This document shows positions 616 through 34,950 of a DNA stretch of 64,000 nt, one piece after another; within the stretch, counting starts at the first letter, position 1, and every line of letters starts with the position of its first letter. The notes beneath the pieces were generated by a model. It was not told the DNA's origin. It searched no databases and saw only the letters and a list, made by a program, of their open reading frames with translations. A program made the translations under genes and the position numbers. This DNA comes from an uncultured Acidimicrobiia bacterium (lineage in GTDB: Bacteria > Actinomycetota > Acidimicrobiia > Spongiisociales > JAOTWH01). The stretch covers positions 3,518 to 67,517 of the forward strand of contig CAYFYE010000003.1 of NCBI GenBank assembly GCA_964347285.1, written 5' to 3'.

Positions 616-3138
616 TTACTCTTCGCGGGCGCGGAGGTAGGCGACGCCGAAGCCAGCGACTGCCACCACGGCCACCGCCGCCAGCGCCGCGATCACGATG
701 ACCGTCGTCGAGTCGCCGTCGTCGGAGGTCTCCGAAGGCGCGGTGGCCGCCTCCCGCAGCATCTCGTCCATGTGGTCGATGTGCTGGTCGTTGGCGAGGA
801 TTTCCCCGTATTTGGCGACGACGGTCTCGGTCCAGAACTCGGTGTCGGCCATGTTGCGATGGCACCCCATGCACACCCCGGTCCGCTCCATGCGTTCCCG
901 CTGGTCCTGGCTCAGCGGACCCGAGTCCGGCCAATGGGACCCGACGATCTGGAGCTGCTCCCCGTCCCGGGACACGATCTGGCTCCAGTCGATGTTCAGC
1001 TCGGGAATGGCGGGTATCTGTGGCTGGGTCTGCTCCGGCCAGACGCTGCCGTCCGGCAGCTCGAGGTCGACGAAGACGTCCTCGGGGTAGCGGCGCTGGT
1101 AGCGGCCGTCCTGAATCCCGTAGCCGAGCGCCTTGGGGTCGCTGTGACAGCTCTCACAGGTGCGGGCGATGCGGGTCGCCGAGTGGGGCTGCACCGGAGC
1201 CATGTCGATGGCGAGCTGTCCTCCCTCGGCGGTCTCACTACCCGGCGGCGTCGTGCCCACGGCGTTGTGGAGAAGGACCTCGCCGTCGGGCCCGATGACC
1301 GTCTTCACCACCTGGCAGCCCGGCATCAGGGGAGTGACCCGCCCCTCGCCGTTCAAGCCCAGGATCGGCTCCTCCCAGCGGAGGTAGGAGCGAGACTCGT
1401 TCACCTCGCCCGGTGACTCGCCGGGCGAGGTGCCCAGGATGACGCCCGGCGACGTAATCGCCTCATGGGCCTCTTCGGGGTGCTCGGCGATGGTGCGGCC
1501 ATCGGCGAAGCGGGTGTTGCCGATGGCCACCCAATCGGTGGCGGCAACACCTTCGCCGTAGTTTGCCTGGACATGGCACCCGTAGCATTGCGGCGCCCAA
1601 TCCGAGTGGCAGGCGTAGCACTCCAGCTCGTCGATGTGGGGAGCCACCGACGACATGGCGACCTCACTGGCCTCGCTCTTCCATTCGTCGGCGACCTTGA
1701 TGTTCTTCAGCACCGGGACCTCGTAGTCCCGTCCGGTGGCCGAGTGCACGATCACTGCGTTGCCGACCCGGACCACGTTGCCGAAAGGGTTGCCCCGGGC
1801 GGTCAGCAGATAGCCGTCCTCCGCGTCGTACACCGTGGCGTTGCCCTGGAAGGGAAGCAGCTCGTCGGTCACGCCGCGGGGCGTCTCCGGCAGCTCCCGG
1901 CCGAACTCCTCCTGGTAACCGATCGGCAGCTCCCAGGGGTACAGGTCGGGGGTGCCGTGACAGTCTGCGCACTCGATCTCCACCTGCGCCAGCGTGGTAC
2001 CGAAGATGTTGCCGTCGCCGTGCATGTCGGCGCTGGTGTGGCAGTCCTGGCACAGCATGCCCCCCTCGGGGTTGCCGGCACGGCTCTCCTGCTGGTGATG
2101 GAGGTCGTCCTTGATGAAGAGGTACTTCTTGGTGTGCAGGGGCGGCTGGGCCTCGCCGCTCTCGCTGAACGGCGACCCGTAAGGGAACTCCATCAGGCCC
2201 TGGTAGGTGACCCCGATGCGCTTGCCCCGGTTGTGGCACGAGACACAGGTCTCGGTGGGAATGCCGTTGTTGGCCTCCCGGGTGCCCTGGATGATGTGGG
2301 AGAGCATGTGCCCCGGCTCGTCCTTGGCAACGGTGGGATCGCCGCCCTCGTAGAAGCCCTCGTTGCTGTAGGGGATGTGGCAGGAGGAGCAGCCCATCCC
2401 CCGGTAGTCGCCCCGGGCCAGCCGTCCCTTGATGCCCACGTGGCAGCGCTGGCACTGCTGACGCTGGTAGGTGAATCCGGACAGGAACGGATCGTCCAGG
2501 ATCTCCTCGAGCGTGGGGTTGGGAAGCTGCTCGAGGGAGGAGGGGAACTGGTCGGGGAAGCGATCGATCAGGTCGGTCATGTAGGCCTTGTATCGATCCG
2601 TTCCGACCCGGGGCGTGGTCCCGTCCGGATCGTCGATGTCGTAGTTCCCCCACACCACCTTCTGGTCCTTCTGGACCGTCCAGGTGAACATGTTGCCCTG
2701 GATCTTGCCCGCCTCGCTCTGCATCAACGACCGATGGAGGTTGTAGGGGTGGTCGGGATGGCATTGCCCGCAGGTCTTGTCGGCGATCCAGAGGCTCCCG
2801 GGGTCGGGATAGAACTCCTCGGCGGCCAGGCCGGCCGGAGCCCCCTGGTGCGCTTCCTCGGCCGTGGCGGCCTGGGGGTCGCCGCCGTGACAGACCGTGC
2901 ACCCCGCCGGGTCGCCGGCCCCGGCTCCCAGGCCCTGGATTGCCGCCAGCATCCCCGAACCTTCTTCACGAATCGGTTCGATCCCGCCGTGGCACGCCAG
3001 ACACCCGTCGCCCGTGGCCTGATACAGGACGGCCGGGTGGCCCGAGGGCTCGGAGGCGGCCTGAGCCCCGGCCATGAGGAGGAGAGCGAGGAGGGCCGGT
3101 CCCACCAGCAGGCCCGCTGCCCGCAGCTCGAGCCGCAT
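616..3138 (-). CDS. multihaem (12x CxxCH) c-type cytochrome with Sec signal peptide and C-terminal transmembrane anchor
   Basis: Twelve CxxCH motifs (CLACH, CTVCH, CGQCH, CQRCH, CSSCH, CVSCH, CQDCH, CADCH, CYACH, CYGCH, CESCH, CMGCH). N-terminal MRLELRAAGLLVGPALLALLLMAGAQAA resembles a signal peptide. C-terminal VIVIAALAAVAVVAVAGFGVAYL is a TM helix followed by RAREE. Confidence 0.85.
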   Translation of the reverse strand: MRLELRAAGLLVGPALLALLLMAGAQAASEPSGHPAVLYQATGDGCLACHGGIEPIREEGSGMLAAIQGLGAGAGDPAGCTVCHGGDPQAATAEEAHQGAPAGLAAEEFYPDPGSLWIADKTCGQCHPDHPYNLHRSLMQSEAGKIQGNMFTWTVQKDQKVVWGNYDIDDPDGTTPRVGTDRYKAYMTDLIDRFPDQFPSSLEQLPNPTLEEILDDPFLSGFTYQRQQCQRCHVGIKGRLARGDYRGMGCSSCHIPYSNEGFYEGGDPTVAKDEPGHMLSHIIQGTREANNGIPTETCVSCHNRGKRIGVTYQGLMEFPYGSPFSESGEAQPPLHTKKYLFIKDDLHHQQESRAGNPEGGMLCQDCHTSADMHGDGNIFGTTLAQVEIECADCHGTPDLYPWELPIGYQEEFGRELPETPRGVTDELLPFQGNATVYDAEDGYLLTARGNPFGNVVRVGNAVIVHSATGRDYEVPVLKNIKVADEWKSEASEVAMSSVAPHIDELECYACHSDWAPQCYGCHVQANYGEGVAATDWVAIGNTRFADGRTIAEHPEEAHEAITSPGVILGTSPGESPGEVNESRSYLRWEEPILGLNGEGRVTPLMPGCQVVKTVIGPDGEVLLHNAVGTTPPGSETAEGGQLAIDMAPVQPHSATRIARTCESCHSDPKALGYGIQDGRYQRRYPEDVFVDLELPDGSVWPEQTQPQIPAIPELNIDWSQIVSRDGEQLQIVGSHWPDSGPLSQDQRERMERTGVCMGCHRNMADTEFWTETVVAKYGEILANDQHIDHMDEMLREAATAPSETSDDGDSTTVIVIAALAAVAVVAVAGFGVAYLRAREE

Positions 3139-3895: not shown

Positions 3896-3962
3896 GGGAT
3901 CAATAGTACGGAACCAGCACCGGCGCTGCCGGATACGGCACTCTGCCGCGACGGCAGGAATC

Positions 3963-4317
3963 GGTGGAGGTGCGGGGAGTCGAACCCCGGTCCTCTGAGG
4001 CTTCGGCGCCGGCATCTCCGAGCGCAGCCGACAGCGAGCCTTCGGGACAGTGGGACTCTGTCGGCTAGCTTCCCTCTGCCCTATCCCGAGTTGGGCTTGA
4101 CCCGCCGATCCGGGAGCCCCGGCGGGGGCATCCTGCTTTGCGACGCCCGATCCCGGCGAGGCAGGCACCCACCGAGGGGACGGGCTGCGTCAATTAGGCA
4201 GCCAGTGCGACGCTTTCGTCGGCACGTATTTGTTGTTCCGGTTGTTTCACGAGGACTCCGGAGACCTCGGCTCGCTTCCGACGCGTCGACCCTCAGAGTC
4301 GAAACCGCATCACCCCC
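3963..4317 (-). ncRNA. ssrA: tmRNA (ssrA, transfer-messenger RNA)
   Basis: 5' end is GGGGGUGAUGCGGUUUCGAC. 3' end is GGGGUUCGACUCCCCGCACCUCCACC, with a T-arm, an acceptor stem carrying the G3:U70 wobble, and CC encoded. The internal tag ORF GCC GAC GAA AGC GUC GCA CUG GCU GCC UAA gives the tag ADESVALAA. Located immediately downstream of smpB. Confidence 0.85.
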
Positions 4318-4396: not shown

Positions 4397-4873
4397 TCAC
4401 CGCCGATAGCGGCGCGCCCTGTCCATCTCCCGCTCCTCCTCTTTCCTGCGCAGCTCGCGTCGCTTGTCGTAGGTCCGCTTGCCACGGGCCAGGCCCAGCT
4501 CGACCTTGGCTCTGCCCTCGCTGAAGTAGATCGCCAGCGGGATCAGGGTGAGGCCCTTTTCGGCGAGGGTGCCGGCCAGGCGATCGATCTGTCGGCGATG
4601 GAGGAGGAGTTTGCGCCGCCTCTCCGGTTCATGGCCGCCGTCGCGGGCAAAGGCGTATGGGGCGATGTGGAGGTTCTCCAGCCAGGCTTCCCCGCCGCGA
4701 ATGGTGGCATAGGCGTCCTTCAGATCGGCCTGTCCGGCCCGCAAGCTCTTCACCTCCGACCCCAGCAGCACCAGCCCCGCCTCGAAGGTGTCGAGGATCT
4801 CGAAGTTGCGGCGGGCCCGGCGGTTGCTGGCCACGACCGCGCGCCCCCTCTCCTCACGTGCCCGACGGCTCAC
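4397..4873 (-). CDS. smpB: SsrA-binding protein SmpB
   Basis: Conserved SmpB sequence: ...NRRARRNFEILDTFEAGLVLLGSEVKSLR ... LHIAPY ... GLTLIPLAIYF. Adjacent to the tmRNA gene. Confidence 0.9.
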   Translation of the reverse strand: MSRRAREERGRAVVASNRRARRNFEILDTFEAGLVLLGSEVKSLRAGQADLKDAYATIRGGEAWLENLHIAPYAFARDGGHEPERRRKLLLHRRQIDRLAGTLAEKGLTLIPLAIYFSEGRAKVELGLARGKRTYDKRRELRRKEEEREMDRARRYRR

Positions 4874-7824: not shown

Positions 7825-8935
7825 CTAGCCCTGCTCGGCGCGTCGCCTCCTCCACTGCAGATACGCATCCACGAACTGCTCGAGATCGCCGTCGAGGACT
7901 CCTTGCACGTTGCCGACCTCGACCCCGGTGCGCAGGTCCTTGACCATCTGGTAAGGCTGCAACACGTAAGAGCGGAGCTGACGGCCCCAGGCGGCCTCCC
8001 CCTGATCGCCTCGAATCTCGTCGATTTCGGCCTGCTGCTCCTGGCGGGCCCGTTCGGCGAGTCGGGACGCCAGCAGCTCCATCGCCCGGGCCTTGTTCTG
8101 CATCTGGGAACGCTCCGCCTGACAGCTGACCACGATGCCGGACGGTTCGTGAGTTATCCGCACCGCCGAATCGGTGACGTTGACGTGCTGGCCCCCGGCG
8201 CCCTGGGACCGAAAGGTCTCGACGCGCAGATCGTCGGGATTGATCTCCACCTCGGCCACCTCGACCTCCGGAATGACGTCCACCGCGGCAAACGACGTGT
8301 GACGGCGAGAGGCGGCATCGAAGGGACTGATGCGCACCAGTCGGTGCACGCCGCGCTCCCCTTCCAGAATCCCGTAGGGGCGCTCACCCCGCACCGTGAG
8401 CGTGGCCGACTTGATGCCGGCCTCCTCGCCCGGCTGATACTCGTCGATCTCGACCTCGAATCCGGCCCGCTCCAGGAAACGGAGGTACATGCGCAGCATC
8501 ATCTCCGCCCAGTCCTGGGCATCCACCCCGCCCGCCCCGGCATGGAGGCTGAAGATCGCGGTACGGTCGTCGTACTCCCCCGAGAACAAACCCTCGCGCT
8601 CCAGCGTGTTGAGGAGTCCGTCGACCCGCTGCAGTTCGCTCAGAACATCTTCCCGGGCCGAGGCATCGTCCTCCTCCTCCGCCAAGGTGAGCAGCACGTC
8701 CGCATCCTGGATGGCCCGCTCCAACTCGCTCACGCGCTCGACGACCCCTTCCACGCGGGCCAGATCCCGGGTGACCCGGAGGGCCCGCTCCTGGTCCTCC
8801 CACAAATCGGGCGCAGCGGCCTCCTCCCTCAGCGCGGTGAGTCGAGCCTCCTTGCCGTCAACGTCAAAGGAACCTCCGGGCGTCATCGAGGCGCGAGCGA
8901 AGGTCCTTCAGCAGGGTTTGGGGATCGGTGGACAT
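7825..8935 (-). CDS. prfB: peptide chain release factor 2, with programmed +1 ribosomal frameshift
   Basis: Frame 0 is ATG TCC ACC ... CGG AGG TTC CTT TGA C (24 codons, then UGA). The +1 frame continues LDVDGKEARLT... through the GGQ motif (GGQHVNVTDSAVRITH). The CUU UGA C slippery/stop context with GGAGG 3 nt upstream matches the canonical RF2 autoregulatory frameshift site. Confidence 0.9.
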
Positions 8936-9716
8936 GGGCTTGGTGATGGTAGTGACGACAATGCCGATGAGCGGCGACGGGGACGTCGAAGTGGCCCTCA
9001 GTTGGTTCCCGTTGCCCGAGTCTTCGGCAGGGCCCGTCGGGATCGGGCATGCTTAGGGCTCTTTGCCCCAGGGACAGGGTCGCGCCGACGCCGCCCACCA
9101 CCACCACCATGGCCAGCCCGGTCAGCAGGGCGGGGATCGCACCGAGGCCTGTGATCGGCAACGATTCTCTCGTGAACGATTCGAAGGCCGGCCGCGGCTC
9201 CACCACCACGGTCAGGACAAGGTCGACGGTGGAACAGGCACCGAAGGGGTCGCAGGTCCGAATCGTGACTGGGAACACACCGCCGGCGGCCGGCGCTCCG
9301 CTCCACGTGCCGTCGGGATTGAGGGACAACCCGGGAGGCAGCACTCCGGCCACGACCGTCAGCACGTAGGCGTCCCCATCCGGCTCTCCGATCTGGAGTG
9401 GCGATGGGCTGTTCCCGTACACGAGCTGAATGCCGGCGACCCCCGCGGAGACGGGGGCGTCGTTCACGGGAGCCACGATCACCGTCACGGTGGCCTGGGA
9501 GCATCCGCCGGCACCATCGCACACCGTGTACGTGAACGTGTCGGTGCCGAAGAAGTCGGTCGCCGGCGAGTAGGTCAGTGTCCCGTCGGCGTTGACCATC
9601 ACGGTCCCGTGCCCGGGCTGGGTCGCCGCCGTCACCGTCAAACCATCGCCGTCGATGTCGGCGTCATTGGCCAAGGGCGCGAAGGTCACCATGGCGTCCT
9701 CGTCGACGGCTACCAA
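8883..9716 (-). CDS. Ig-like / cadherin-like repeat protein with C-terminal TM anchor, possibly N-terminally truncated or frameshifted
   Basis: Motifs LANDADIDGDGLTVTA, VNDAPV and GVLPPGLSLNPDGTWSG are typical of cadherin-like and putative Ig domains. TM helix IPALLTGLAMVVVVGGVGA. No signal peptide. The 3' end overlaps the prfB start by about 52 nt. Confidence 0.5.
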   Translation of the reverse strand: MVAVDEDAMVTFAPLANDADIDGDGLTVTAATQPGHGTVMVNADGTLTYSPATDFFGTDTFTYTVCDGAGGCSQATVTVIVAPVNDAPVSAGVAGIQLVYGNSPSPLQIGEPDGDAYVLTVVAGVLPPGLSLNPDGTWSGAPAAGGVFPVTIRTCDPFGACSTVDLVLTVVVEPRPAFESFTRESLPITGLGAIPALLTGLAMVVVVGGVGATLSLGQRALSMPDPDGPCRRLGQREPTEGHFDVPVAAHRHCRHYHHQAHVHRSPNPAEGPSLAPR

Positions 9717-9935
9717 ATCCCCTGCCTCCAGGCCAGATCGTCTCCACGCAGGTTGGTCGTGAGGATGAATTCGGACCAGAGCCGGTCGAGCGAACCCGCT
9801 TCCGTCTCTCCCAGCTTGGCCGCCGGAATACCCCAGCGCTTCTCCCAGGCCTCGAGGAACTGCGGGCCCAGGCGGTAGGTGCGGGCGAGCTCGCCGGGAG
9901 TCACTACCGAAGGGGAACAGAACTCCGACGGCGGG

Positions 9936-12563
<2,628 letters not shown>

Positions 12564-12608
12564 GACTGCCGGTCAGTGTAGAGAGGACCGACCCCATACT
12601 GATAGGGG

Positions 12609-14000
12609 TCAGAATCCGAGGCTCTGGCGCACGCTGGGCTTCTCGAGAAGGGTCGCCGGATCGATGCCGGCTCGCTCGGGGAGGAGCTGTTCCACCACGT
12701 CGCCGGGGCCGAACAGAACGGGTTGGGGATCGAGCATCAACTCCCCCTCGGCGGTCCGCACCAGCACTCCGGCCGGACGGCCCGGGTCGTGATCGATCAG
12801 GTGGGTCACCATCACGACGTCACCCGAGTCCAGCTGCAAGATCGAGCCGGCCGGATAGGCCCCCATCATGTGGATGAAGGCCCGGACGAAGTCGGGATCG
12901 TACGAGGAAGCGGCGCCGGTCAGCAGCACGTGCAGCGCCCGGTTGGGAGTCTCGGCCCGACGATAGGAACGCCGAGTCGTGATGGCATCGTATGTGTCGG
13001 CCACCGAGACCATGCGGCTGTAGAAGTGCAGACCTCCCCTGGAGGGCTGCCGGTGTCCGTTGCCGTCGTCGTGGGGATGGGTGTGAGGGTTGCCCACCTT
13101 GGGATAGCCGGTGCCGTCGAAACGAGCATGGTGCTCGAGCGCGATCACCGCCGCCACCTCTTGGCCGCGGCCCGATGCAGCCAGGATGGCTTCGGCGCCA
13201 CTCTGAGGATGAAGCTTGATCTCTTCCCACTGGGCCGCGTCGAGGCGGCCCGGGTGCTGCAGAATGCTCGCCGCCACGCCCACCTTGCCGATGTCGTGCA
13301 ACAGTGCCCCCATGCCCAGTGGGACCAGCCGCTCCTCATCGAGCCCGATCAAACGGCCCAACGCCAGGGCGTAGATCGAGGTGTTGACCGAGTGGTAGTA
13401 GGTGTACTCGTCGTGCCCCTTGACCGTGGCCAGGAGCAGCGACGCTCCCGGCTGGCTCATGGTCTGCTCTACGAGGTCGCGAACCGTGTTGGCCACCCCG
13501 CTCAACTCGAAATCCCCGTCGCCCTTCATGGCGAAGCCGATACCCCGAAGGAGATCGAGGGAGGCGGCGTAGGAGCTGCGGAGTGCCCCGATCTCCGAAT
13601 GCTCGAGGTCCGAACGCGAGAGCGGCCTCTCGTTGAGCCGTATCGAACCGGCCGCCGGCAGATCGTCGGAAAAGCCGGCGATGAACGAAGCCAGATCAGA
13701 GGCGTCGGCCGGCCGGACCAGGCTGATGAGGGTGATCGAGTCGATGCCCCGCTTCTGCAGGTCGCGCAGGATCCCGTTGAACTCGAGGGAGGCGTGGGCC
13801 AGCAACGACGGCCCGAGGTAGATGGCATCGTCCATGAGAGTCAGCACGCATTCGCCGCCCTCGGGCATGAGACCGTTGGCCGTATTGACAGCGGCGGCTA
13901 CACCCTCGCGTGCGAGCGGGTGGGTGTCCGGATAGAGGCCTTGCTGGCGCACCAGCCGTCGCAGCTGTCCGAGAAATTCACGTACGGCGCGCTCGTTCAT
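12609..14000 (-). CDS. HD-GYP domain phosphodiesterase (c-di-GMP) with an N-terminal domain of unknown function
   Basis: HD motif LLHDIGK and GYP motif HHARFDGTGYP are both intact. Overlaps the upstream HEAT gene by 4 nt. Confidence 0.8.
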   Translation of the reverse strand: MNERAVREFLGQLRRLVRQQGLYPDTHPLAREGVAAAVNTANGLMPEGGECVLTLMDDAIYLGPSLLAHASLEFNGILRDLQKRGIDSITLISLVRPADASDLASFIAGFSDDLPAAGSIRLNERPLSRSDLEHSEIGALRSSYAASLDLLRGIGFAMKGDGDFELSGVANTVRDLVEQTMSQPGASLLLATVKGHDEYTYYHSVNTSIYALALGRLIGLDEERLVPLGMGALLHDIGKVGVAASILQHPGRLDAAQWEEIKLHPQSGAEAILAASGRGQEVAAVIALEHHARFDGTGYPKVGNPHTHPHDDGNGHRQPSRGGLHFYSRMVSVADTYDAITTRRSYRRAETPNRALHVLLTGAASSYDPDFVRAFIHMMGAYPAGSILQLDSGDVVMVTHLIDHDPGRPAGVLVRTAEGELMLDPQPVLFGPGDVVEQLLPERAGIDPATLLEKPSVRQSLGF

Positions 14001-15961
14001 CCACCACCCCCGAGGGCCCTGCGGGCTGCATCGCGAATTGCTCGGGCCTGGCCGAAGATGGCGAGCCGACGCTCTGCGTACTCGCGCAGGGCATGCCGGG
14101 CCGGCTCGGTACCTCGCTCGCCGAGCACCTCGATGACGCGCAGCTTCAGCTGCAGACTGGCCTCGCCCCCGGCGAGCACCGTTGCCAGGTTGTCGTCCAC
14201 TTGGTGGGCCGCCGAGTTGACGAGCAGCGCCACCGCCGCCTGGCGAACCCGCTCATGGCGGTCGTCCAGTCCGGCAACGGCCGCTTCGATTCCCCGCTCG
14301 CTCGGCAGGGGCACCACCGATCGCAAGGCCTCGACGCGTACTCGGTGATCTTTGTGGGAAGCGGCCAGCACCTTCAGTCGGGCGGCCACGTCGCTGCGGC
14401 CGCTCCGACCCAGCACGGTGGCCAGGTTGCGAACCACGAACCACCGCTCGTCCTTCAGGTAGGGATAAACCGGAGTGGGATCGACTTGGGCGATCCCCGA
14501 CATCACGTCGATGAGCAAGCGGCGCCGGGCCGGTGTCTCCTCATCGGCCAGCAACTCGACCAGCTTGTCCAGCACAGTCGGGCCCCACGCCTCCAGGAGG
14601 GGAAGGCCCGAGCCCTCCCCCTGCTCGTCGAGCTGCATCACCAGCGCCTCGATCAGCTCGGGACTCGACATGGCGGCGAGAGCGTCGTCGACCTCATTCT
14701 GTTTGTCGGGTGGGTAGGTCGGTTCCTCGGTGACCGCCCGTAGCCATTCCTCGGCCCGCTCCAGGTCGCTCTCCCGAATGCTGCGAGACACCTTCCCCGT
14801 CCACACCCGAACCAACCGGCGAAAACGCACGTCTCGATCCTCGATGGCGAACAGGCGGCGGAGCACCTCGATTCCAATGTTGTCGTCCTCGGCCGGATCG
14901 GGAAATTCGAGGGTTAGATTCTCGAACGATTCAGCGGTCAACGACGGAGCGTCTTGCCCTCCGCCGAGCAACGCCCCGATCCGCCCGGCCACCGCCCGGC
15001 GGGCCTCTTGTACCTCCTCGGCCGACTGCAGCAGAGCCATCAGCTCTTCGGGGCGGCCCTCCTCGGTCGACACCCGGGCGTATTCGAGAAGACCGGCCCG
15101 AACCGGCTGCGGCAACGAGGTCGCCAGCCGAGCGAGGTCGTGTCCGGAGAACTGGTCCAGGAAGACCTGGTACGAAGGTTTGGACCGATGACCTACAAAC
15201 CGCTCCAGCAGCGGGACCTGGAACTCAGTGGGAAAGTAGAAATAGGCCTCGACGAAGGCGCGGACCACGTCCTCGCGGCCACCGTGGTCGCTCTCGCCGA
15301 CCAGGCCGTAGACCCGGTCGTATCGGTCGGCGAACACCTCGGTCAGCCGTTCGGAGCTGCCTTCGGCCTCGGCAATCAGCTCTGCGGCAAACGCTTCCGG
15401 ATCGGCGGCGTCCCGGAGCAGTTTGGCGACCTCGGTGTCGCGCGCCTCATTGGCGGCATCCTCCGACTCGACGAGCATCGAGCGTTGGACGACCTGAATG
15501 GCCTCGATGCCGGCGTTGAGGAGGGCGAAACGGACACCCCCGAGGGAACGGACTTCTTCGTCGTCGGTGTCCAGCACCTCGAACAGCCTCAGTAACTCGT
15601 CGTCGCGAGGCGGCGCGGCCAGCTGCAGAGCAGCGACCTCGTGCACAAACAGCCTCTTCACCAGGCGGGCCACCCCTTCCCTGGAACCCCTGACCTCTTC
15701 CTCGTCGGCTACGAAGGCACCGGTGCCGACTTCGGTGTAGAGGGGATACACGGCTTCGGTCTGCTTCAGTTCCTCCATGGCCCGTTCCCATGCCGGCTGG
15801 GCGGCCGGCTCGGGATAGAGCTGATACGTGCTCCAGGCCATGCCGAGAGCATCGACCAGCAGCGTGATCGCCTCTGGGGTGATCTCGCTCTCTCGAGCGC
15901 TCTCAGAAGCTCTCTCCTCGTGCTCATCGACCTGGGGCTCTGCATCCATGACAAGCCTCAA
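13997..15961 (-). CDS. HEAT/PBS-lyase-like repeat protein (hypothetical, 654 aa)
   Basis: C-terminal degenerate alpha-helical repeats (…DHRVRVEALRSV…, …DRHERVRQAAVALL…). No enzymatic motifs. Coupled by 4-nt overlaps to both neighbours. Confidence 0.5.
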   Translation of the reverse strand: MRLVMDAEPQVDEHEERASESARESEITPEAITLLVDALGMAWSTYQLYPEPAAQPAWERAMEELKQTEAVYPLYTEVGTGAFVADEEEVRGSREGVARLVKRLFVHEVAALQLAAPPRDDELLRLFEVLDTDDEEVRSLGGVRFALLNAGIEAIQVVQRSMLVESEDAANEARDTEVAKLLRDAADPEAFAAELIAEAEGSSERLTEVFADRYDRVYGLVGESDHGGREDVVRAFVEAYFYFPTEFQVPLLERFVGHRSKPSYQVFLDQFSGHDLARLATSLPQPVRAGLLEYARVSTEEGRPEELMALLQSAEEVQEARRAVAGRIGALLGGGQDAPSLTAESFENLTLEFPDPAEDDNIGIEVLRRLFAIEDRDVRFRRLVRVWTGKVSRSIRESDLERAEEWLRAVTEEPTYPPDKQNEVDDALAAMSSPELIEALVMQLDEQGEGSGLPLLEAWGPTVLDKLVELLADEETPARRRLLIDVMSGIAQVDPTPVYPYLKDERWFVVRNLATVLGRSGRSDVAARLKVLAASHKDHRVRVEALRSVVPLPSERGIEAAVAGLDDRHERVRQAAVALLVNSAAHQVDDNLATVLAGGEASLQLKLRVIEVLGERGTEPARHALREYAERRLAIFGQARAIRDAARRALGGGG

Positions 15962-16605
15962 AGGGAGATCAGGTTCTCTCGTACTGCGTAGAGGACCGCC
16001 TCGCTCCGGGAATGGAGACCCAGCTTGTCGAGGATGTTGCGCACGTGGTTCTTGACCGTGTTCTCAGAGATGTACAACAGCTCGCCGATCTCTTTGGACG
16101 TGTGACCCTGAGCCACCATCTCCAGCACCTCGATCTCTCGTCCGGTGAGCACCGGCTTGCGGGACGCGAACAGCTCTCGATGCCGCAGAAGCTGACGGGC
16201 GGCGTCGAAGAGCTTTCCGCACATCAACGGCGTCACCGCCGCTCCGCCTTCGGCTATGTCGCTGATGGCCTTGGCCAGCTCTTCGAAGGAGGCGTCTTTG
16301 TTCAGATAGCCGCGCGCCCCGGCCTTGATGCCCTCGAGCAGATCCTCCTCCGACTCGCTGGAAGTGAGTAGCACGACGTGCGTGTCGGGCGATACTGCGT
16401 AGAGCTTCTCCACAACCTCCAGACCGGAGAGGCCGGGCATGAGGATGTCCAGCACCACCACCTCAGGCTGGAGGTATTCGGCTTCGGCGACCGCTCCCTC
16501 GGCGTGCTCGGCCTGGCCCACAACGTGGAAGCCGGCCTCGTTCAGAGCCGCGGCCAACCCGGCCCGGAACAGGGCCACGTCATCGACGACCAGAACACTG
16601 GTCAT
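15958..16605 (-). CDS. NarL/FixJ (LuxR-type HTH) response regulator
   Basis: Receiver domain has DD, D (VLDILMPG), T and K. C-terminal GerE/LuxR HTH: TGREIEVLEMVAQGHTSKEIGELLYISENTVKNHVRNILDKLG. The ATG overlaps the hpf stop (ATGA). Confidence 0.9.
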   Translation of the reverse strand: MTSVLVVDDVALFRAGLAAALNEAGFHVVGQAEHAEGAVAEAEYLQPEVVVLDILMPGLSGLEVVEKLYAVSPDTHVVLLTSSESEEDLLEGIKAGARGYLNKDASFEELAKAISDIAEGGAAVTPLMCGKLFDAARQLLRHRELFASRKPVLTGREIEVLEMVAQGHTSKEIGELLYISENTVKNHVRNILDKLGLHSRSEAVLYAVRENLISL

Positions 16606-17171
16606 GTGGGCTCTATCAAACCCAATGACCCATCGCGACGCCGATACAGAACTCCGTAGCGCTCAGTCTCCCCGTTCAGGAAGAAGAAGAAACTGTGGCC
16701 GAGCAACTCCATCTGCAGAGCGGCCTCCTCAGGCATCATGGGTTTCATCGCGAACTGCTTCACGCGGACAATCCCCAATTCGTCCTCTACAGATGGATCT
16801 TCGGCCACCCCTGCGGAGGCATTGAGACGTTTGTGATCGTCGGTTCGGGTGCGCTGGATGAGGCGCTGTTTGAGCTGGCGCAGGCTTCGCTCGAACTTCT
16901 CCGAAGCCTGGTCGAGAGCGGTCCGCTCTTCATGCGCAGCGGCCTCGACGCGCACCAGCTGTCCGGCCACTCGTGTCGTGATCTCCACCCGGTAGCGAGC
17001 ATCGGCAATGCGCGGGTTTTGCTGCTCGATGAACTCGACGTCGACCGCCGAGTCGTCGCCAAAGATCCGACCGGCGTTTCCCAGCTTGCGCTCAGCGAGG
17101 GCCCGGAGATCCTCGCCGACCTGCATGCGCTTGCCGTGCACCCGTACGTCCACCGGTTGCTCCTTTCCCAC
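16602..17171 (-). CDS. hpf: ribosome hibernation promoting factor (long HPF, RaiA/YfiA family)
   Basis: Sigma-54-modulation-like N-terminal domain, plus a C-terminal dimerisation domain (VRVKQFAMKPMMPEEAALQMELLGHSFFFFLNGETERYGVLYRRRDGSLGLIEP). Confidence 0.85.
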   Translation of the reverse strand: MGKEQPVDVRVHGKRMQVGEDLRALAERKLGNAGRIFGDDSAVDVEFIEQQNPRIADARYRVEITTRVAGQLVRVEAAAHEERTALDQASEKFERSLRQLKQRLIQRTRTDDHKRLNASAGVAEDPSVEDELGIVRVKQFAMKPMMPEEAALQMELLGHSFFFFLNGETERYGVLYRRRDGSLGLIEPT

Positions 17172-17354
17172 GACGCGCTTCGCCCCCGAGTGAGGCGGAG
17201 AGGTTTGACGCGGGACCGAGCGGCGGGGCCGACCCGCCGTCTCGCGTCCCGAGTCTCGTGAAGCCAGACAATGGCCTGATTTGCACTATACGCCCCGAGC
17301 CGGGGTGGCATAGGGGGCAAAGGACCCTAGACGTGGATTCCCGCTCCCAGGGGG

Positions 17355-17948
17355 TCAGGGGGAAGCCGGCCGCGGGAACAAGGAACGGCCCGCCATCGTC
17401 GCCGTCACCGCCCCGATCGGCTCGCTCCCCAGGGCAAGATATGCCGCCGTGAGCGTGGCCCCGGTCGTGACCACGTCGTCCACCAGCACCACGCCGGCAG
17501 GGAGGGTTCGTCGCCGTCGGAAGGACGGAAGCGTACGGCGTCCCGTTCCGGCATGCCGGGGCCACCACAGCGGCCCCGACAGTGCCTCCAGCACCGGAAG
17601 GCCGCTCGAGGTGCCGAGCTCCCGCCCCAGCTCGAAGGCGGGATCCACTCCGTATCGCCAGCGCCGCAGGGCCGCCCTCGGCACCGGAACCAGGGCGCGG
17701 GTCCCGCCGGGCAACGCCTCCATCATGGCCCCGGCCAAGAGCCTCGTTGCCGCGCCGCTCCCCTCGTACTTGAGGCGGTGCACCAAGCGGCGGGCCGGGC
17801 CATCGTGCCGGAGGGGTGCCGCCACCATCAGGCCAGCGGGCAGCCGCCTCGTACCACCACCGGCCAACTGAAGGCGACACCGTGAACACAGCGGACTCGT
17901 CGGCCATGATCCGCAGGCGAGGCAGGCGGTCCGGTCTCCGAACCCCAT
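17355..17948 (-). CDS. comF: ComF family protein (phosphoribosyltransferase domain, ComFC-like)
   Basis: N-terminal Cys pairs CLACGS...CSRCR and the PRTase motif VVLVDDVVTTGATL. The internal ATG at 17948 was preferred over the track start at 18170. Confidence 0.7.
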   Translation of the reverse strand: MGFGDRTACLACGSWPTSPLCSRCRLQLAGGGTRRLPAGLMVAAPLRHDGPARRLVHRLKYEGSGAATRLLAGAMMEALPGGTRALVPVPRAALRRWRYGVDPAFELGRELGTSSGLPVLEALSGPLWWPRHAGTGRRTLPSFRRRRTLPAGVVLVDDVVTTGATLTAAYLALGSEPIGAVTATMAGRSLFPRPASP

Positions 17949-18000
17949 CGATCGAACGTAGTCGCCGACCGCGACACAACACGAGGCACCAGAGAACGGT

Positions 18001-19938
18001 TTGGAGGGACGATCCCCAACGCCGCTCGCCGGTCCGCTACCTTGCGTTGGCCAGGAGGCAGAACAAAGGAACACGTTGGGCCTCACGCAGCGGGGGAACA
18101 TCATTCGGGCGGTGCCGGTGGTGTGGCTGACATTGCTGACCGCCGCTTCCAGCAACGACGTGGGCACCACGACGGCGGCGGCATCCCTCCCGACCGCTGC
18201 GACCGCTCAGCCGGCGCCGCCGACCACCACGACCGCCGCAAACACGACGACCACCACCCTCCCTCCCACCCACCTGTACGGGGGCGAGGTGGTGATCGGT
18301 ACTACCGCCGAGCCGGCCACCCTGAACCCCTACCTGCCGGGAGGAGATGCACCGATCCTCGGCCGAATCGGCCGCGCCGTCTGGACCGGTGTCTACGACA
18401 TCGATCCTTCCACGCTCGAGCTCATCCCCGACGTCGTCACCGAGCTTCCCTCGGTGGCCAACGGGGGCATCACCGTGGACGAAGCGGGGATCGAAACCAT
18501 CCGCTACCAGATCCGCGACGAGGCGGTATGGGCGGACGGGGTGCCGATCTCGGGAGACGACTTCCTCTTCACCTACCAGACGATCATGGACCCGGGCCTG
18601 CCCATCGACAAGACGCTCTACGAGGACATCGTCCCCGAATCGGTGGTAGCGGGGCCCAAGACCTTCGAATACGCGCTGGCCCCTCCCTCGGTCGAGGCCG
18701 AGCTGCTGTTCGACACGATCCTGCCCAGACACGACGTCGAGGGATCCGATCTCCTCGGGGCCTGGAGCGACCGAATGTGGGTCTCCGGAGGTCCCTTCTC
18801 CTTCGCCGAGTGGAGGCCGGGTGAGTCGATCACGCTGGTGCGCAACGACAACTACTGGAAGGCCGACCCTGAGACGGGCCAACAGCTTCCCATCCTCGAG
18901 GAGGCGACCTTCCTCTTCTACCCCGATACCGAGGCAATGCTGGCCGCATTCGCCGATCGCTGGGTCGACATCATCCTTCCGCCGGCGGAGGTGGCGACGA
19001 TCCAGCAACTCCGAAGCCTCGAGGGGACCAGGGTCGACGTAGCGGGTGGGCCCGTCTGGGAACACCTCGCCTTCCAGTTTGGAGAGAACCGGCTCATCCG
19101 CAATCCCGGCTCCTACAACGAGTTCGTCGAGTACCGCAAGGCGATAGCCCACGCCATCGACCGTCAGAGAATCGTCGACGAGATGCTCGGGGGGCTGGTC
19201 GAGCCGCTCCAATCGTACGTGGATGTCTTCGGCCCGACCCTGTCGGGTCGGGCGTGGTCCCGGTACGACTACGACCCGGAGAAGGCCCGTGATTTCATCG
19301 AACAGTTGTGTGCCCGGGAGGACACCAACTGTGAGACCGACCCGCCGACGGCCGTCTTTACCACCGTTTCCGACGGAGATCGGGTGTCGCTGGCACAGCT
19401 CCTCGAGCCGATGTTGGCCGACGCCGGAATCGAGTTCGCGCCCGACCTCGAGGACGACGCCCTCTTCTTCGGCGAGACCTTCTTCTTCGGCACCTGGGAC
19501 ATGGCCGAGTGGGGCGTGCGGAGCAGGCCCGGCCTTCCCGGGCTGTCGGAGTTCCACGACTTCCTCGATCCCCGCGCCCCTCCGCCCGAGGGCAACAACT
19601 ACTACCGCTGGGGCACGCCCGAAGTGGTGGGGCAGGTCCCGCCGGAGCTCGACCAGGCTCGGTCGTCGGTGATCGATGAGGCCACCGAGCGGTTTGCCCG
19701 CTTGTGGGACCTGGCCCAGGCCGAGGTCGACCGGGACCGGCTGGTTCGGCTCATCGCCGAGATGGAGCAGATCCTCGCCGACAACGTCGTGATCATCCCG
19801 CTCTATCCCCGCCTCAACCCGGCGGCGGTGTGGGCCGACGAGATCGGCGGCTATCGCCACAGCCCCGTTCCGGGCGGTGACACCTGGAACATCGAGCAGT
19901 GGTTCCGGGTCGACCGGAACGGGGAAAGGGCCGGATAG
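18001..19938 (+). CDS. ABC transporter substrate-binding protein, family 5 (peptide/nickel type), orphan
   Basis: About 600-aa extracytoplasmic protein. Hydrophobic leader AVPVVWLTLLTAASS, then a Thr/Ala/Pro-rich linker, then an SBP_bac_5-like body. The true start may be an alternative codon near 18070. No permease or ATPase genes are adjacent. Confidence 0.6.
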   Translation: MEGRSPTPLAGPLPCVGQEAEQRNTLGLTQRGNIIRAVPVVWLTLLTAASSNDVGTTTAAASLPTAATAQPAPPTTTTAANTTTTTLPPTHLYGGEVVIGTTAEPATLNPYLPGGDAPILGRIGRAVWTGVYDIDPSTLELIPDVVTELPSVANGGITVDEAGIETIRYQIRDEAVWADGVPISGDDFLFTYQTIMDPGLPIDKTLYEDIVPESVVAGPKTFEYALAPPSVEAELLFDTILPRHDVEGSDLLGAWSDRMWVSGGPFSFAEWRPGESITLVRNDNYWKADPETGQQLPILEEATFLFYPDTEAMLAAFADRWVDIILPPAEVATIQQLRSLEGTRVDVAGGPVWEHLAFQFGENRLIRNPGSYNEFVEYRKAIAHAIDRQRIVDEMLGGLVEPLQSYVDVFGPTLSGRAWSRYDYDPEKARDFIEQLCAREDTNCETDPPTAVFTTVSDGDRVSLAQLLEPMLADAGIEFAPDLEDDALFFGETFFFGTWDMAEWGVRSRPGLPGLSEFHDFLDPRAPPPEGNNYYRWGTPEVVGQVPPELDQARSSVIDEATERFARLWDLAQAEVDRDRLVRLIAEMEQILADNVVIIPLYPRLNPAAVWADEIGGYRHSPVPGGDTWNIEQWFRVDRNGERAG

Positions 19939-20015
19939 CAATGCGTCCGGGCGCGTGGAGCCGATCGACCGCGGCAGGGCGGGGCGGTTTGGAGCCACCC
20001 TCCTAGAGTCACCTT

Positions 20016-21149
20016 ATGACCGACGCTGCGATCGACGCTCCCCGCTCCACTCTCCGGCGCGTGCTTCAGGGGGTGATCTCGGTGACGCTGGTCGTGCTGT
20101 TGTTCGCCTGGGCGCTGCCCCGCATGGCCGACTACGCGGCCATCTGGGGAGCCATACGATCGATGAGCCTCGTCGGCATCGTCGCCCTGGCCGGAGCGGC
20201 CTTCGCCAACCTCCTCACCTACTGGTGGGTGCAGGTGGTGGTGCTGCCGGGTCTCACCTACCCCAAAGCCGCCGTGGCCCACCAGGCTTCAACGGCGTTG
20301 GCCCACGCCGTTCCCGGCGGCGGTGCCATCGCCGTCGGCCTCACGTATGCCATGTACTCGTCGTGGGGATTCGGGCCGGCAGCCATCGCCCGCTCGGTTC
20401 TGGTGTCGGGCCTGTGGAACAACCTGGCCAAATTCGCCTTTCCGGTGGTAGCTCTGGCCCTGCTCGCCTTCGGCGGCGGGGCCTCGGCGGCGCTGGTGGC
20501 CACCGCCGCATTCGGGCTGGCTTTGCTGGTCGGGACGCTGGTGACGCTGGGCCTGGCGCTGCGCAGCGACCGACTGATCCGGGCGCTGGGCCGGGCGGCT
20601 GCGGCCGTCGCGTCGGCACCTCGCCGGCTCGTGGGCAGGCCCCCGGTGGGAGGCTGGGAGGAGGGGGCGAGCCGCTTCCGAACCGATGCGGCCGGCATGC
20701 TGCACAGCCGGTGGATCGAGATCACCGTCGCCACCGTGGCCAGCCAAACCGCCATCTTCTTGGTGCTGCTGGCGGCGCTGCGGGCACTGGACGTGACCGG
20801 GAGCGAGGTCGGGTGGGTCGAAGCGTTCGCGGCGTTCTCGTTCGTACGGCTCGCCTCGGCGCTGCCGCTCACGCCCGGCGGCCTCGGCATCGTGGAACTG
20901 GGTCTGCTGGCCGCCTTGACCTCGGGCCTTGCCGAAACTGCAGCAGCCCAGGTCGCCGCGGCGGTACTGGTGTTTCGCTTCGTGACGTACGTCCTGCCGG
21001 TGGCCACCGGAGCCGTGGCCTATCTGGCCTGGCGGCGGGTGCCCGGACTTCGACCACAGGGACTAGTCACTACGGAAACTACTAATCGTGCACTGACGAA
21101 CACGAAGAGTTACGATAGAGTGACCCCTCAGGGCAAACAGAGGGAGTAA
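20016..21149 (+). CDS. polytopic membrane protein of the lysylphosphatidylglycerol-synthase-TM / flippase-like family (UPF0104-like)
   Basis: Eight to nine TM helices. The conserved C-terminal segment LPLTPGGLGIVELGLLAAL is typical of this family. Confidence 0.5.
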   Translation: MTDAAIDAPRSTLRRVLQGVISVTLVVLLFAWALPRMADYAAIWGAIRSMSLVGIVALAGAAFANLLTYWWVQVVVLPGLTYPKAAVAHQASTALAHAVPGGGAIAVGLTYAMYSSWGFGPAAIARSVLVSGLWNNLAKFAFPVVALALLAFGGGASAALVATAAFGLALLVGTLVTLGLALRSDRLIRALGRAAAAVASAPRRLVGRPPVGGWEEGASRFRTDAAGMLHSRWIEITVATVASQTAIFLVLLAALRALDVTGSEVGWVEAFAAFSFVRLASALPLTPGGLGIVELGLLAALTSGLAETAAAQVAAAVLVFRFVTYVLPVATGAVAYLAWRRVPGLRPQGLVTTETTNRALTNTKSYDRVTPQGKQRE

Positions 21150-21153
21150 GGGC

Positions 21154-23001
21154 ATGGCCATCGATGTCACGGCGACTCGGGAACGGCAACGGCGCAGGCG
21201 TCTTCTTCGAATAGCCGTCTTCCTCGTCCCGCTGGCCGCCTGGCTGTGGTACCGGGCTCTCACCAACAACCCGGTCTCCCCCGGGCTGCCCGAGTTGCCA
21301 TCCGAGGCCTGGATCTGGCTGCCGGGCATCCTGATCGTCCTGCTGCTCGGCATCGTCCTGGTGGCTCCGATGCTGGGCAATGCCCGTTCCCCGCACACCA
21401 TCTTCCTGCCTGAGCAGATCGAGGTGACCTTCTCCGACGTCAAGGGGCTGGGACCGGTGGTCGCCGAGGTGCGCCACACCCTCGAGGTCTTCTTGAACCA
21501 CAAGCGCTTCCAGCGAGACATGGGCGGCACACCGCGTCGCGGGGTGCTCTTCGAAGGGCCGCCGGGCACCGGTAAGACCCATGTGGCCCGGGCCATGGCC
21601 AAGGAGGCGGGGGTGCCCTTCCTGTTCGTATCGGCGACCTCGTTCCAGAGCATGTGGTACGGCATGACGGCCCGCAAGATCCGCGGCTTCTTCCGGCACT
21701 TGCGCAAGGTGGCCCGTGCCGAGGGCGGGGCCATCGGGTTCATAGAGGAGTTTGATGCCATCGGAATGCGCCGGGGAGGCATTTCGACGGCCACCGCAAT
21801 GGCCACTGGGGTCCCGGGCGGCCTGGTGATATCGCCGGCCATCTCCGAGGGCGTCGGCGGCGTCGTCAACGAGCTCCTGGTGCAGATGCAGAGCTTCGAC
21901 GAAAGCCCTCTTCCGACCCGCTTCGCCAATTGGTGGAAGCGCCGGCTGAACCGGTACTTGCCGCCCGGCCGGCAGCTCAAGACCGCGGCACCGCCGTTCT
22001 CCAACATCCTCCTCATCGGTGCCACCAACCGGGCCGACTCCCTCGACCCGGCGCTGCTCCGGCCGGGCCGCTTCGACCGCATCCTCCACTTCGACGTCCC
22101 CGGGCGAAGCCAGCGGCGAGAGCTGGTGGACTACTTCTTGTCACGCAAGCGGCACGCTCCCGAGCTCGACAACGACGCCTCGCGCGACGAGCTGGCGGCG
22201 ATGACGATGGGCTACACCCCGGCCTCCTTGGAGCGCCTGTTCGACGAAGCCCTGCTGGTGGCCTTGCGCCAGGACCGCCAAGCGCTGACGATGGCCGACA
22301 TGCGCCGGGCCCGCATGGAAGTGGAGATCGGCCTGCCTCAGCCGGTGGACTACTCCCAACAGGAGCGGGAGACCATCGCCGTCCACGAGGCCGGCCACGC
22401 CGTGATGGCCTACCTGGTCGGCAAGGGGCGCAAGCTCGAGGTGCTCTCGATCATCAAGCGACGCGAAGCTCTCGGCTTGCTGGCCCACAGCGAAGAGGAA
22501 GAGCGCTTCACCCGCCGCCACGGCGAGATGCGGGCCCTCATCCAGATCGCCATGGGGGGAATGGTGGCCGAGGAGCTGTATTTCGCCGAGTCGGGAACCG
22601 GGCCGGCCGGCGATTTGGCCGCGGCGACCAACGTGGCGGTGGACATGGTCGGATCATTCGGGCTGGGCGGTTCGCTGATCAGCTACCAGGCGCTCGACTC
22701 GGGACTGGTCGGGGGCAACCTGGCTTCCAAGGTACTCAACGACCAAGAGGGCCGCCACCGGGTGGAGAAGATCCTCGAGGACAACAAGGCCGAGGCCCGC
22801 CGGGTGCTCTCCCGCCACCGCTACCTCGTGGAGGCGCTGCGGGATGCTCTGCTGGAACGGGAAGAGCTCGTGGACGATGAGATCCTCAAGGTGATCCGCA
22901 CCGCCGAGATGAAGGCGATCGCCGACGGCGATGTAACGGTCGACCTCCGCCGGGTTGATCCCGACCTCGTCGAAAGCCCGATCGAGCTGGTGGAGGAGTA
23001 G
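21154..23001 (+). CDS. FtsH-family AAA+ ATPase / M41 zinc metalloprotease paralog
   Basis: Two N-terminal TMs, Walker A GPPGTGKT, SRH region GATNRADSLDPALLRPGRFDR and zinc site HEAGHAV. Diverges from canonical FtsH in Walker B and inserts. Confidence 0.8.
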   Translation: MAIDVTATRERQRRRRLLRIAVFLVPLAAWLWYRALTNNPVSPGLPELPSEAWIWLPGILIVLLLGIVLVAPMLGNARSPHTIFLPEQIEVTFSDVKGLGPVVAEVRHTLEVFLNHKRFQRDMGGTPRRGVLFEGPPGTGKTHVARAMAKEAGVPFLFVSATSFQSMWYGMTARKIRGFFRHLRKVARAEGGAIGFIEEFDAIGMRRGGISTATAMATGVPGGLVISPAISEGVGGVVNELLVQMQSFDESPLPTRFANWWKRRLNRYLPPGRQLKTAAPPFSNILLIGATNRADSLDPALLRPGRFDRILHFDVPGRSQRRELVDYFLSRKRHAPELDNDASRDELAAMTMGYTPASLERLFDEALLVALRQDRQALTMADMRRARMEVEIGLPQPVDYSQQERETIAVHEAGHAVMAYLVGKGRKLEVLSIIKRREALGLLAHSEEEERFTRRHGEMRALIQIAMGGMVAEELYFAESGTGPAGDLAAATNVAVDMVGSFGLGGSLISYQALDSGLVGGNLASKVLNDQEGRHRVEKILEDNKAEARRVLSRHRYLVEALRDALLEREELVDDEILKVIRTAEMKAIADGDVTVDLRRVDPDLVESPIELVEE

Positions 23002-34910: not shown

Positions 34911-34950
34911 TTTGGGGCGCCGAACAGCGCATGGCAAAGGAGAACCGGCG

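Follow-up and report, generated by a model that had tools for sequence, protein, structure and literature searches.

A HEAT-repeat/HD-GYP protein pair with a shared N-terminal domain in a putative hpf operon of uncultured Acidimicrobiia

In a 64,000-nucleotide stretch of DNA from an uncultured Acidimicrobiia bacterium (contig CAYFYE010000003.1 of assembly GCA_964347285.1, positions 3,518 to 67,517; hereafter the window, whose numbering is used throughout, with genes on the minus strand unless stated otherwise), four open reading frames (ORFs) on the minus strand are chained upstream of secA, encoding the long-form ribosome hibernation promoting factor (hpf), an orphan response regulator (RR) of the NarL type, a HEAT-repeat protein and an HD-GYP protein. 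The last two begin with a homologous alpha/beta domain of ~125 amino acids (aa) which displays a YPxxHP motif. The arrangement is best explained by one translationally coupled operon put together from two older units, hpf with its RR on the one hand and a HEAT/HD-GYP cassette on the other, a reading to which, together with the mechanism proposed below, we give an even chance. Judged from the sequences, what is new would be an HD-GYP subfamily for which a HEAT partner is obligate, a new domain shared by the two proteins and a new link of such a pair to hpf.

Operon organization and conservation

An initial annotation of the window, made from the letters alone, had described the four genes as a chain of overlapping stop and start codons, and all the ORFs were found at the positions it gave, with an ATGA shared by the hpf stop and the RR start, and another by the HEAT stop and the HD-GYP start, read directly from the sequence. 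The third overlap, placed at 15958-15961, depends on the start codon of the HEAT gene: with a TTG start, which gives a protein of 654 aa, RR and HEAT gene overlap by the 4 nucleotides (nt) TTGA, otherwise an 8-nt gap precedes the ATG at 15949, which follows a GAGG Shine-Dalgarno-like sequence and is the start used in the 650-aa database copy P0001. For hpf, the GTG at 17153, with AAGGAG 6 nt upstream, is probably the true start rather than position 17171. The spacer of 45 nt between HD-GYP gene and secA was recovered as previously noted, and Pfam and NCBIfam matches (Table 1) bear out the gene identities of hpf, RR, HD-GYP and secA, while the identity of the HEAT protein follows from its structural model and a HEAT_2 match.

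A pattern scan with one genome per species retrieved 79 loci, nearly all of them labelled as Acidimicrobiia metagenome-assembled genomes (MAGs), which were searched by tblastn with six window proteins. The complete order hpf-RR-HEAT-HD-GYP-secA is present in 43 of these loci and cut by contig ends in 4-5 more, which amounts to ~47 species-level genomes; in every complete locus comF precedes hpf, at a spacing which is not conserved. The overlap of hpf and RR is 4 nt in nearly all loci, as is that of HEAT and HD-GYP genes in most, loci with the pair alone included, and the RR/HEAT junction measures -4, -1 or +2 nt with an ATG start. As these conserved overlaps contrast with a variable HD-GYP/secA spacer, mostly ~30-170 nt in orthologous loci, hpf, RR, HEAT and HD-GYP genes read as one translationally coupled unit from which secA stands apart. 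Because the same order and overlaps recur in ~47 species-level genomes, the arrangement is not due to chance. Gene order and Pfam domains are also the same on a 3.69-Mb contig (ENA ERZ25071379 contig_2), where genes had been called independently. When the exact sequence of the window HEAT protein was looked up, no record came back, and the window HD-GYP protein was found on a 2.5-kb contig only; a word search for relatives of the HEAT protein gave 26 database matches.

No sigma-70 promoter was found by a consensus scan of 9500-18500, nor was a terminator with more than five stem pairs in the same interval, the space between HD-GYP gene and secA being free of terminator-like sites; Rfam models over 12400-18200 matched no riboswitch or other RNA even at E <= 1.

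The encoded hpf product is of the long form, with an N-terminal S30AE domain and a C-terminal dimerisation domain (PF02482, PF16321 and TIGR00741 all above their cut-offs). Of the four operon proteins the RR is the best conserved, its listed or aligned homologues showing 69-82% identity; it combines a REC domain with a GerE helix-turn-helix (HTH) domain as in the NarL/FixJ type (PF00072 and PF00196), and among its best 120 matches a database search retrieved Acidimicrobiia-type orthologues only. Its phospho-acceptor pocket is complete, as had been noted: D8, D9, D53 and K103 do not vary among 21 orthologues (mean column identity 82%), and T81 occurs both in the window protein and in the alignment consensus. 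Also in agreement with the initial annotation, no histidine kinase gene was seen among the ~40 window ORFs scanned.

The initial annotation had regarded the three middle genes as a lineage-specific insertion, with the mycobacterial arrangement as its reference, in which hpf (Rv3241c) lies directly before secA1 (Rv3240c). The orphan OrrA of Streptomyces coelicolor, an RR of the NarL type, is SCO3008 (PMC9739842; bioRxiv 10.64898/2026.01.30.702861), and HPF is SCO3009 (PMC7157823). The OrrA kinase OhkA is encoded elsewhere, unlinked. By this analogy, an RR next to hpf is not special to Acidimicrobiia, and only the HEAT and HD-GYP genes behave as an insertion. Since Streptomyces also has an RR beside hpf, the mycobacterial arrangement more likely reflects a loss. 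OrrA and the window RR have in common the NarL type, the absence of an adjacent kinase gene and the position directly beside hpf, while the window RR differs in being translationally coupled to both hpf and the HEAT gene; OrrA, with OhkA as its kinase, has wblA and a DUF5999 gene as targets. The Streptomyces genes are situated in a conserved actinobacterial block together with mtrAB-lpqB (PMC9739842; PMC7157823; bioRxiv 10.64898/2026.01.30.702861), genes which the window block does not have. OrrA peptides deduced from published primers ('MADSF...' and '...REKILEIR') are too short to inform a comparison with the window RR.

The HEAT/HD-GYP pair and its shared domain

The homology of the two N-terminal domains, which the initial annotation had missed, is evident at the profile level. 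Alignments of 44 HEAT-type and 57 HD-GYP-type N-termini, distant pairs included, match each other in hhalign with 98.1% probability and an E value of 6.7e-14 over 123 columns, and still with 97% and 8e-11 when the anchoring motif is trimmed off, whereas reversed and column-shuffled controls give E values of ~0.15. The order of secondary structure elements in the AlphaFold2 models is identical. Pairwise BLASTP of the window HEAT and HD-GYP proteins found nothing, and comparison of full-length profiles, at 38% probability, is suggestive only. The HD-GYP copies carry LYPxGHP and distant HEAT partners the exact YPxxHP.

The domain has no match among Pfam and PDB sequences. Among 1.84 billion cluster representatives (50% identity clusters), its profile retrieved 3645 at E <= 1e-3, the match always being at the N-terminus, with protein lengths grouped around 440-480 aa and 620-735 aa, the sizes of the HD-GYP-type and HEAT-type proteins respectively. 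Even among ten matches chosen for unusual length, nine are HD_5 or HEAT_2 proteins and one is without Pfam match, and HD-GYP and HEAT are the only architectures among the profile matches checked. All members whose source was checked are metagenomic and bear generic names. The N-terminal domain would thus represent a previously unnamed domain family which, because both proteins possess it, marks HEAT and HD-GYP proteins as a putative dedicated pair.

The gene pair also behaves as a module of its own. A HEAT-like gene followed by an HD-GYP homologue on the same strand is found in 74 of the 79 loci, in 21-22 of them without RR, hpf and secA, and two MAGs with a linked copy harbour a second, pair-only copy (locus L022 with L001, L048 with L063). 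One solo pair (L041) is located between nuo genes and threonine aldolase/cbb3 oxidase genes, and distant adjacent pairs come from sequences labelled Nitriliruptorales, Coriobacteriia, 'Ca. Geohabitans', Proteobacteria, delta-proteobacterium, Rokuibacteriota and Methylomirabilota. In a neighbour-joining tree of the HD-GYP proteins most solo copies form a clade beside the hpf-linked group, and one solo clade is nested inside the linked group, as would result from joint duplication of the two genes. Gene-neighbourhood comparison, the check put forward in the initial annotation, therefore gives a twofold answer: the full order is retained in the 43 loci noted above, and the pair also occurs elsewhere without hpf, in the same genomes as well as in other phyla. 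HEAT and HD-GYP genes would accordingly be a self-contained two-gene module, and by their distribution it is this module alone that looks like the Acidimicrobiia-specific insertion. A long open frame in high-GC DNA in L077 had the appearance of a HEAT-HD-GYP fusion and was rejected, the two genes being separate and adjacent.

That the initial annotation named no comparable module is in line with the searches: none was found in Pfam, NCBIfam, PADLOC, PDB or the literature, where searches for an HD-GYP/HEAT pair, or for a hibernation factor together with HD-GYP and cyclic di-GMP (c-di-GMP), brought up no relevant description. A defence-system reading was rejected, as PADLOC has no match for the HD-GYP protein and hpf and only generic HTH matches for the RR; for the HEAT protein it gives a generic repeat match only (E 3e-4).

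The HEAT protein has HEAT_2 as its sole Pfam match, at 26.9 bits just below the cut-off of 27.7, which homologues exceed. Its AlphaFold2 model (mean predicted local distance difference test, pLDDT, of 83) consists of an alpha/beta domain at aa 29-160 followed by a solenoid, all-helical with high confidence at aa 176-650, for which Foldseek lists a PP2A holoenzyme entry (8uwb), alphaRep and importins as best PDB matches with E values down to 1e-5. According to the model, the protein is a non-enzymatic alpha-solenoid of the HEAT/ARM type, which agrees with the enzymatic motifs found lacking before. The C-terminal ~475 aa resemble HEAT scaffolds of the PP2A A-subunit and alphaRep type, a likeness at the fold level only, with 13-25% identity in the listed alignments, and the bacterial protein differs by its additional N-terminal alpha/beta domain, homologous to that of the enzyme partner. 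PP2A, with its scaffold holding a metallo-hydrolase, is a useful analogy for the putative window pair. In two loci, L060 (1626-4586; an Actinomycetota MAG) and L063 (655-3640; a MAG labelled Kiloniellaceae, probably mis-binned), the gene between RR and HD-GYP gene is only ~1.1-1.2 kb long and matches the C-terminal part of the HEAT protein only; the HD-GYP proteins of these loci form a separate branch.

In the HD-GYP protein, Pfam recognizes HD_5/HD at aa 199-340, and the AlphaFold2 model (pLDDT 83, predicted template modelling score 0.81) begins with an alpha/beta domain at aa 1-125, which a helical linker connects to the HD-GYP domain; a small beta domain ends the protein. The N-terminus had been described as 230 aa without signature; it indeed has no Pfam match, with a length of ~195 aa. 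PmGH of Persephonella marina (4MCW) is the top match in a profile search against PDB (1e-37) and also ranks best by Foldseek, followed in the sequence search by the Vibrio cholerae phosphodiesterase V-cGAP3 (4.4e-33), which is specific for cyclic GMP-AMP (cGAMP). The HD and GYP motifs, previously reported as intact, are invariant in 34 orthologues: these proteins retain all binuclear metal ligands (H203, H235-D236, H264, H290-H291 and D335), which align to those of PmGH, as well as the GYP motif D295-G296-x-G298-Y299-P300. RSYR at aa 344-347 fits RxY[K/R], with R344 and R347 invariant; of KPG, PG is kept and the lysine is replaced by other residues, histidine in the window protein. Both are substrate-contact motifs, RxY[K/R] contacting Gua1 (bioRxiv 10.1101/2021.11.05.467447). 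On the basis of intact metal ligands, GYP and RxY[K/R] motifs and of closest relatives that are active HD-GYP phosphodiesterases, the protein is likely to be active on c-di-GMP.

In PmGH, E185 holds a third metal, and a glutamate at this position defines a trinuclear subclass able to hydrolyse pGpG, while its absence goes along with binuclear enzymes which stop at pGpG (bioRxiv 10.1101/2021.11.05.467447). An invariant Tyr199, adjoined by Glu198, aligns with the E185 position, where a glutamate was not encountered. As Tyr199 replaces E185, the alignment suggests that the window enzyme belongs to the binuclear subclass. PmGH and the window protein share HD, HH, GYP and RxY[K/R] and have an N-terminal alpha/beta regulatory domain before the catalytic domain; besides the tyrosine and the replaced KPG lysine, the window protein differs by an N-terminal domain not similar in sequence to the GAF domain of PmGH, by an additional beta domain at its C-terminus and by the dedicated HEAT-repeat partner gene of its subfamily. 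RpfG-type REC-HD-GYP regulators unite phosphorelay input and HD-GYP output in one protein, and the window operon also brings together REC and HD-GYP domains; here, however, REC resides on a separate 215-aa DNA-binding RR, the HD-GYP protein has another N-terminal domain without REC match, and any control of the phosphodiesterase by the RR would be hypothetical. Membership in the RpfG family was rejected, REC not being fused to HD-GYP, and so was membership in the Bd1817 family (DUF3391-HD-GYP), since the N-termini of the window protein and its relatives do not match PF11871 even at E <= 1. Right after the GYP motif, aa 301-325 (13026-13100, minus strand) form a His-rich low-confidence loop, GNPHTHPHDDGNGH..., which is confined to the nearest relatives, is absent from most orthologues and could bind an extra metal.

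Proposed mechanism and alternative readings

We propose that hpf and the orphan NarL-type RR, adjacent also in Streptomyces, constitute one of the older units and that the HEAT/HD-GYP cassette is the other, which would have been inserted between RR and secA in one Acidimicrobiia lineage. Because the four cistrons would be situated on one mRNA with overlapping or abutting stop and start codons, conditions that induce hpf, presumably starvation and stationary phase, would at the same time raise the RR, which would be phosphorylated by an unlinked kinase, and lower c-di-GMP. The HEAT and HD-GYP proteins, made in fixed proportion through translational coupling, would assemble via the shared N-terminal domain or be jointly controlled by it; the HD-GYP subunit would hydrolyse c-di-GMP at a probably binuclear metal site, and the HEAT solenoid would serve as a non-catalytic regulatory or targeting subunit. 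Conserved translational coupling makes it plausible that c-di-GMP hydrolysis, transcription and hibernation are functionally linked. A more far-reaching version, which we put forward tentatively and consider rather doubtful as a whole, sees the two proteins as subunits of an undescribed, widespread heteromeric c-di-GMP phosphodiesterase defined by a new pairing domain at the N-terminus (~3600 clusters, 50% identity), which in one Acidimicrobiia lineage became wired into an hpf-OrrA-like operon, where one promoter would set second-messenger clearance together with hibernation.

Several observations weigh against the proposed operon and its mechanism. The pair is present without hpf or RR in many genomes, so that its link to hibernation could be a coincidence. 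No GGDEF domain or diguanylate cyclase is encoded among the ~40 window ORFs scanned. The junction analysis used the start codon nearest to the upstream stop and is biased to small gaps, and all operon members come from uncultured genomes. No HD-GYP gene is adjacent, within the fetched flanks, to four HEAT-type relatives from Desulfarculaceae, Nitrospirota and one unclassified bacterium (L069, L070, L071 and L073), three of which (L069, L070 and L071) have a YxxxHP motif. Acidimicrobiia HEAT copies carry LYPDPxxQP, the conserved histidine having changed to glutamine, and, if the domain binds a ligand, HEAT and HD-GYP copies may not act alike. Finally, the window RR would be OrrA-like by family type and position only.

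The independence of the pair from hpf is the basis of the most serious alternative, which we nevertheless regard as unlikely: an autonomous HEAT/HD-GYP cassette could have come to lie in a permissive, well-expressed housekeeping locus and have been inherited there, functionally unrelated to hpf and RR, with overlaps that reflect genome compaction. Besides the solo copies in 21-22 loci, some of them in MAGs with a linked copy, it is favoured by the fact that outside Acidimicrobiia the pair was never seen beside hpf and that the surrounding housekeeping genes (sahH, comF, hpf, secA, prfB, ftsEX, smpB and tmRNA) are inherited vertically as a block. A neutral cassette would, however, be expected to lose coupling or genes in some lineages, whereas the same order and overlaps of 4 nt or 1 nt persist in ~47 species, although their HEAT proteins are only ~32-46% identical to that of the window. 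No hpf-RR-secA locus without the pair was found, in a HEAT-seeded search which could not have shown such loci.

Other alternatives concern what the two proteins do. The N-terminal domain could be a common sensor of a small ligand or metal to which both proteins respond in parallel and without forming a complex, the HEAT protein having a separate output, and this we hold to be improbable. The YPxxHP motif with its near-invariant histidine is located in a loop and could bind ligand or metal, a sensory role is common among the N-terminal domains of HD-GYP proteins (bioRxiv 10.1101/2021.11.05.467447), and Foldseek aligned the whole HD-GYP model, its N-terminal region included, to PmGH, which is classed as GAF-HD-GYP (bioRxiv 10.1101/2021.11.05.467447). 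A general sensor would, though, be expected on GGDEF proteins or kinases too, while sampled profile matches show HD-GYP and HEAT proteins only; moreover, HEAT and HD-GYP genes are almost always adjacent and overlapping, and the loss of the histidine from the Acidimicrobiia HEAT copy does not fit a common ligand site. Still less probable, in our estimate, is that the HD-GYP protein acts on 3'3'-cGAMP, pGpG or another cyclic oligonucleotide and belongs to a different signalling circuit. The rank of V-cGAP3 as second-best PDB match, the replaced KPG lysine and the invariant tyrosine at the E185 position speak in its favour, as variation of guanine-contact residues can shift specificity (bioRxiv 10.1101/2021.11.05.467447). 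On the other hand, PmGH, a c-di-GMP enzyme, is the best match by sequence and fold, the Gua1-contacting motif is intact as RSYR and the KPG contacts come from main-chain atoms (bioRxiv 10.1101/2021.11.05.467447); the window showed no gene resembling cGAS/DncV, and PADLOC gave no defence-system match.

Genomic surroundings and significance

The operon lies in housekeeping surroundings, with sahH, PMM, an FtsH-like gene and comF on the hpf side and prfB, ftsE, an M23 peptidase gene, smpB and the tmRNA gene beyond secA (Table 1). The tmRNA gene (Rfam RF00023, 142 bits) adjoins smpB (3962-4317 and 4397-4873, both minus strand), and together with prfB (7825-8886), ftsE and the M23 peptidase gene they make the region downstream of secA a neighbourhood of translation and quality-control genes. 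On the other side, 18001-23001 on the plus strand encodes an SBP_bac_5 solute-binding protein, an LPG_synthase_TM protein and an FtsH-like AAA+/M41 protease, where Streptomyces, like Mycobacterium, has mtrAB-lpqB; these genes were seen neither in the window nor in L081.

Table 1. Features of the locus in window coordinates.
Feature	Position	Strand	Basis
hpf, long-form ribosome hibernation promoting factor	16602..17171	-	Pfam Ribosomal_S30AE 5.9e-13 and Ribosom_S30AE_C 3.4e-23; NCBIfam yfiA/HPF
RR, orphan NarL/FixJ-type	15958..16605	-	Pfam Response_reg 2.2e-25, GerE 1.5e-21; 215 aa
HEAT-repeat partner protein	13997..15961	-	HEAT_2 match, AlphaFold2 model, Foldseek
N-terminal shared domain of HEAT protein	15467..15886	-	aa ~26-165, motif LYPEPAAQP; hhalign
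HD-GYP protein, 463 aa	12609..14000	-	Pfam HD_5 and HD; profile and Foldseek against PDB
N-terminal shared domain of HD-GYP protein	13593..14000	-	aa 1-136, motif LYPDTHP
HD-GYP catalytic core	12861..13418	-	aa ~195-380; conserved metal ligands and motifs
secA, downstream neighbour	9936..12563	-	NCBIfam SecA equivalog, 1208 bits
comF-like phosphoribosyltransferase, upstream neighbour	17355..18170	-	weak NCBIfam comF match
comF-hpf intergenic region	17172..17354	-	TATAGT -10-like hexamer near 17290; candidate operon promoter only

Elsewhere in the window, an 840-aa protein (616-3138, minus strand) with weak cytochrome c7, c3 and MtrC/MtrF-like matches near its N-terminus may be a multihaem cytochrome, and two minus-strand ORFs of 763 and 945 aa (27578-29869 and 32100-34937) have coding-like GC content at third codon positions and no Pfam match at E <= 1e-4. 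A single 574-aa ORF (58127-59851, minus strand) combines an LplA-B_cat lipoyl ligase/transferase domain with a radical-SAM lipoyl synthase domain and looks like a LipB/LipA-type fusion.

HD-GYP proteins are the less understood class of c-di-GMP phosphodiesterases, mostly with undefined N-terminal regions, and a HEAT partner with the same N-terminal domain offers a concrete, testable model for the regulation or localisation of such enzymes, while the domain itself is a new family worth curating. The evolutionary picture of the locus is corrected in that the RR-hpf adjacency is common to Streptomyces and the mycobacterial hpf-secA1 arrangement is probably a reduced state. The place of the pair beside hpf and an OrrA-like RR in one operon suggests that abundant uncultured Actinomycetota tie second-messenger turnover to the entry into dormancy, and if the reading of a heteromeric, hpf-wired phosphodiesterase is true, it would provide a direct genetic link, unreported so far, between c-di-GMP signalling and ribosome dormancy.

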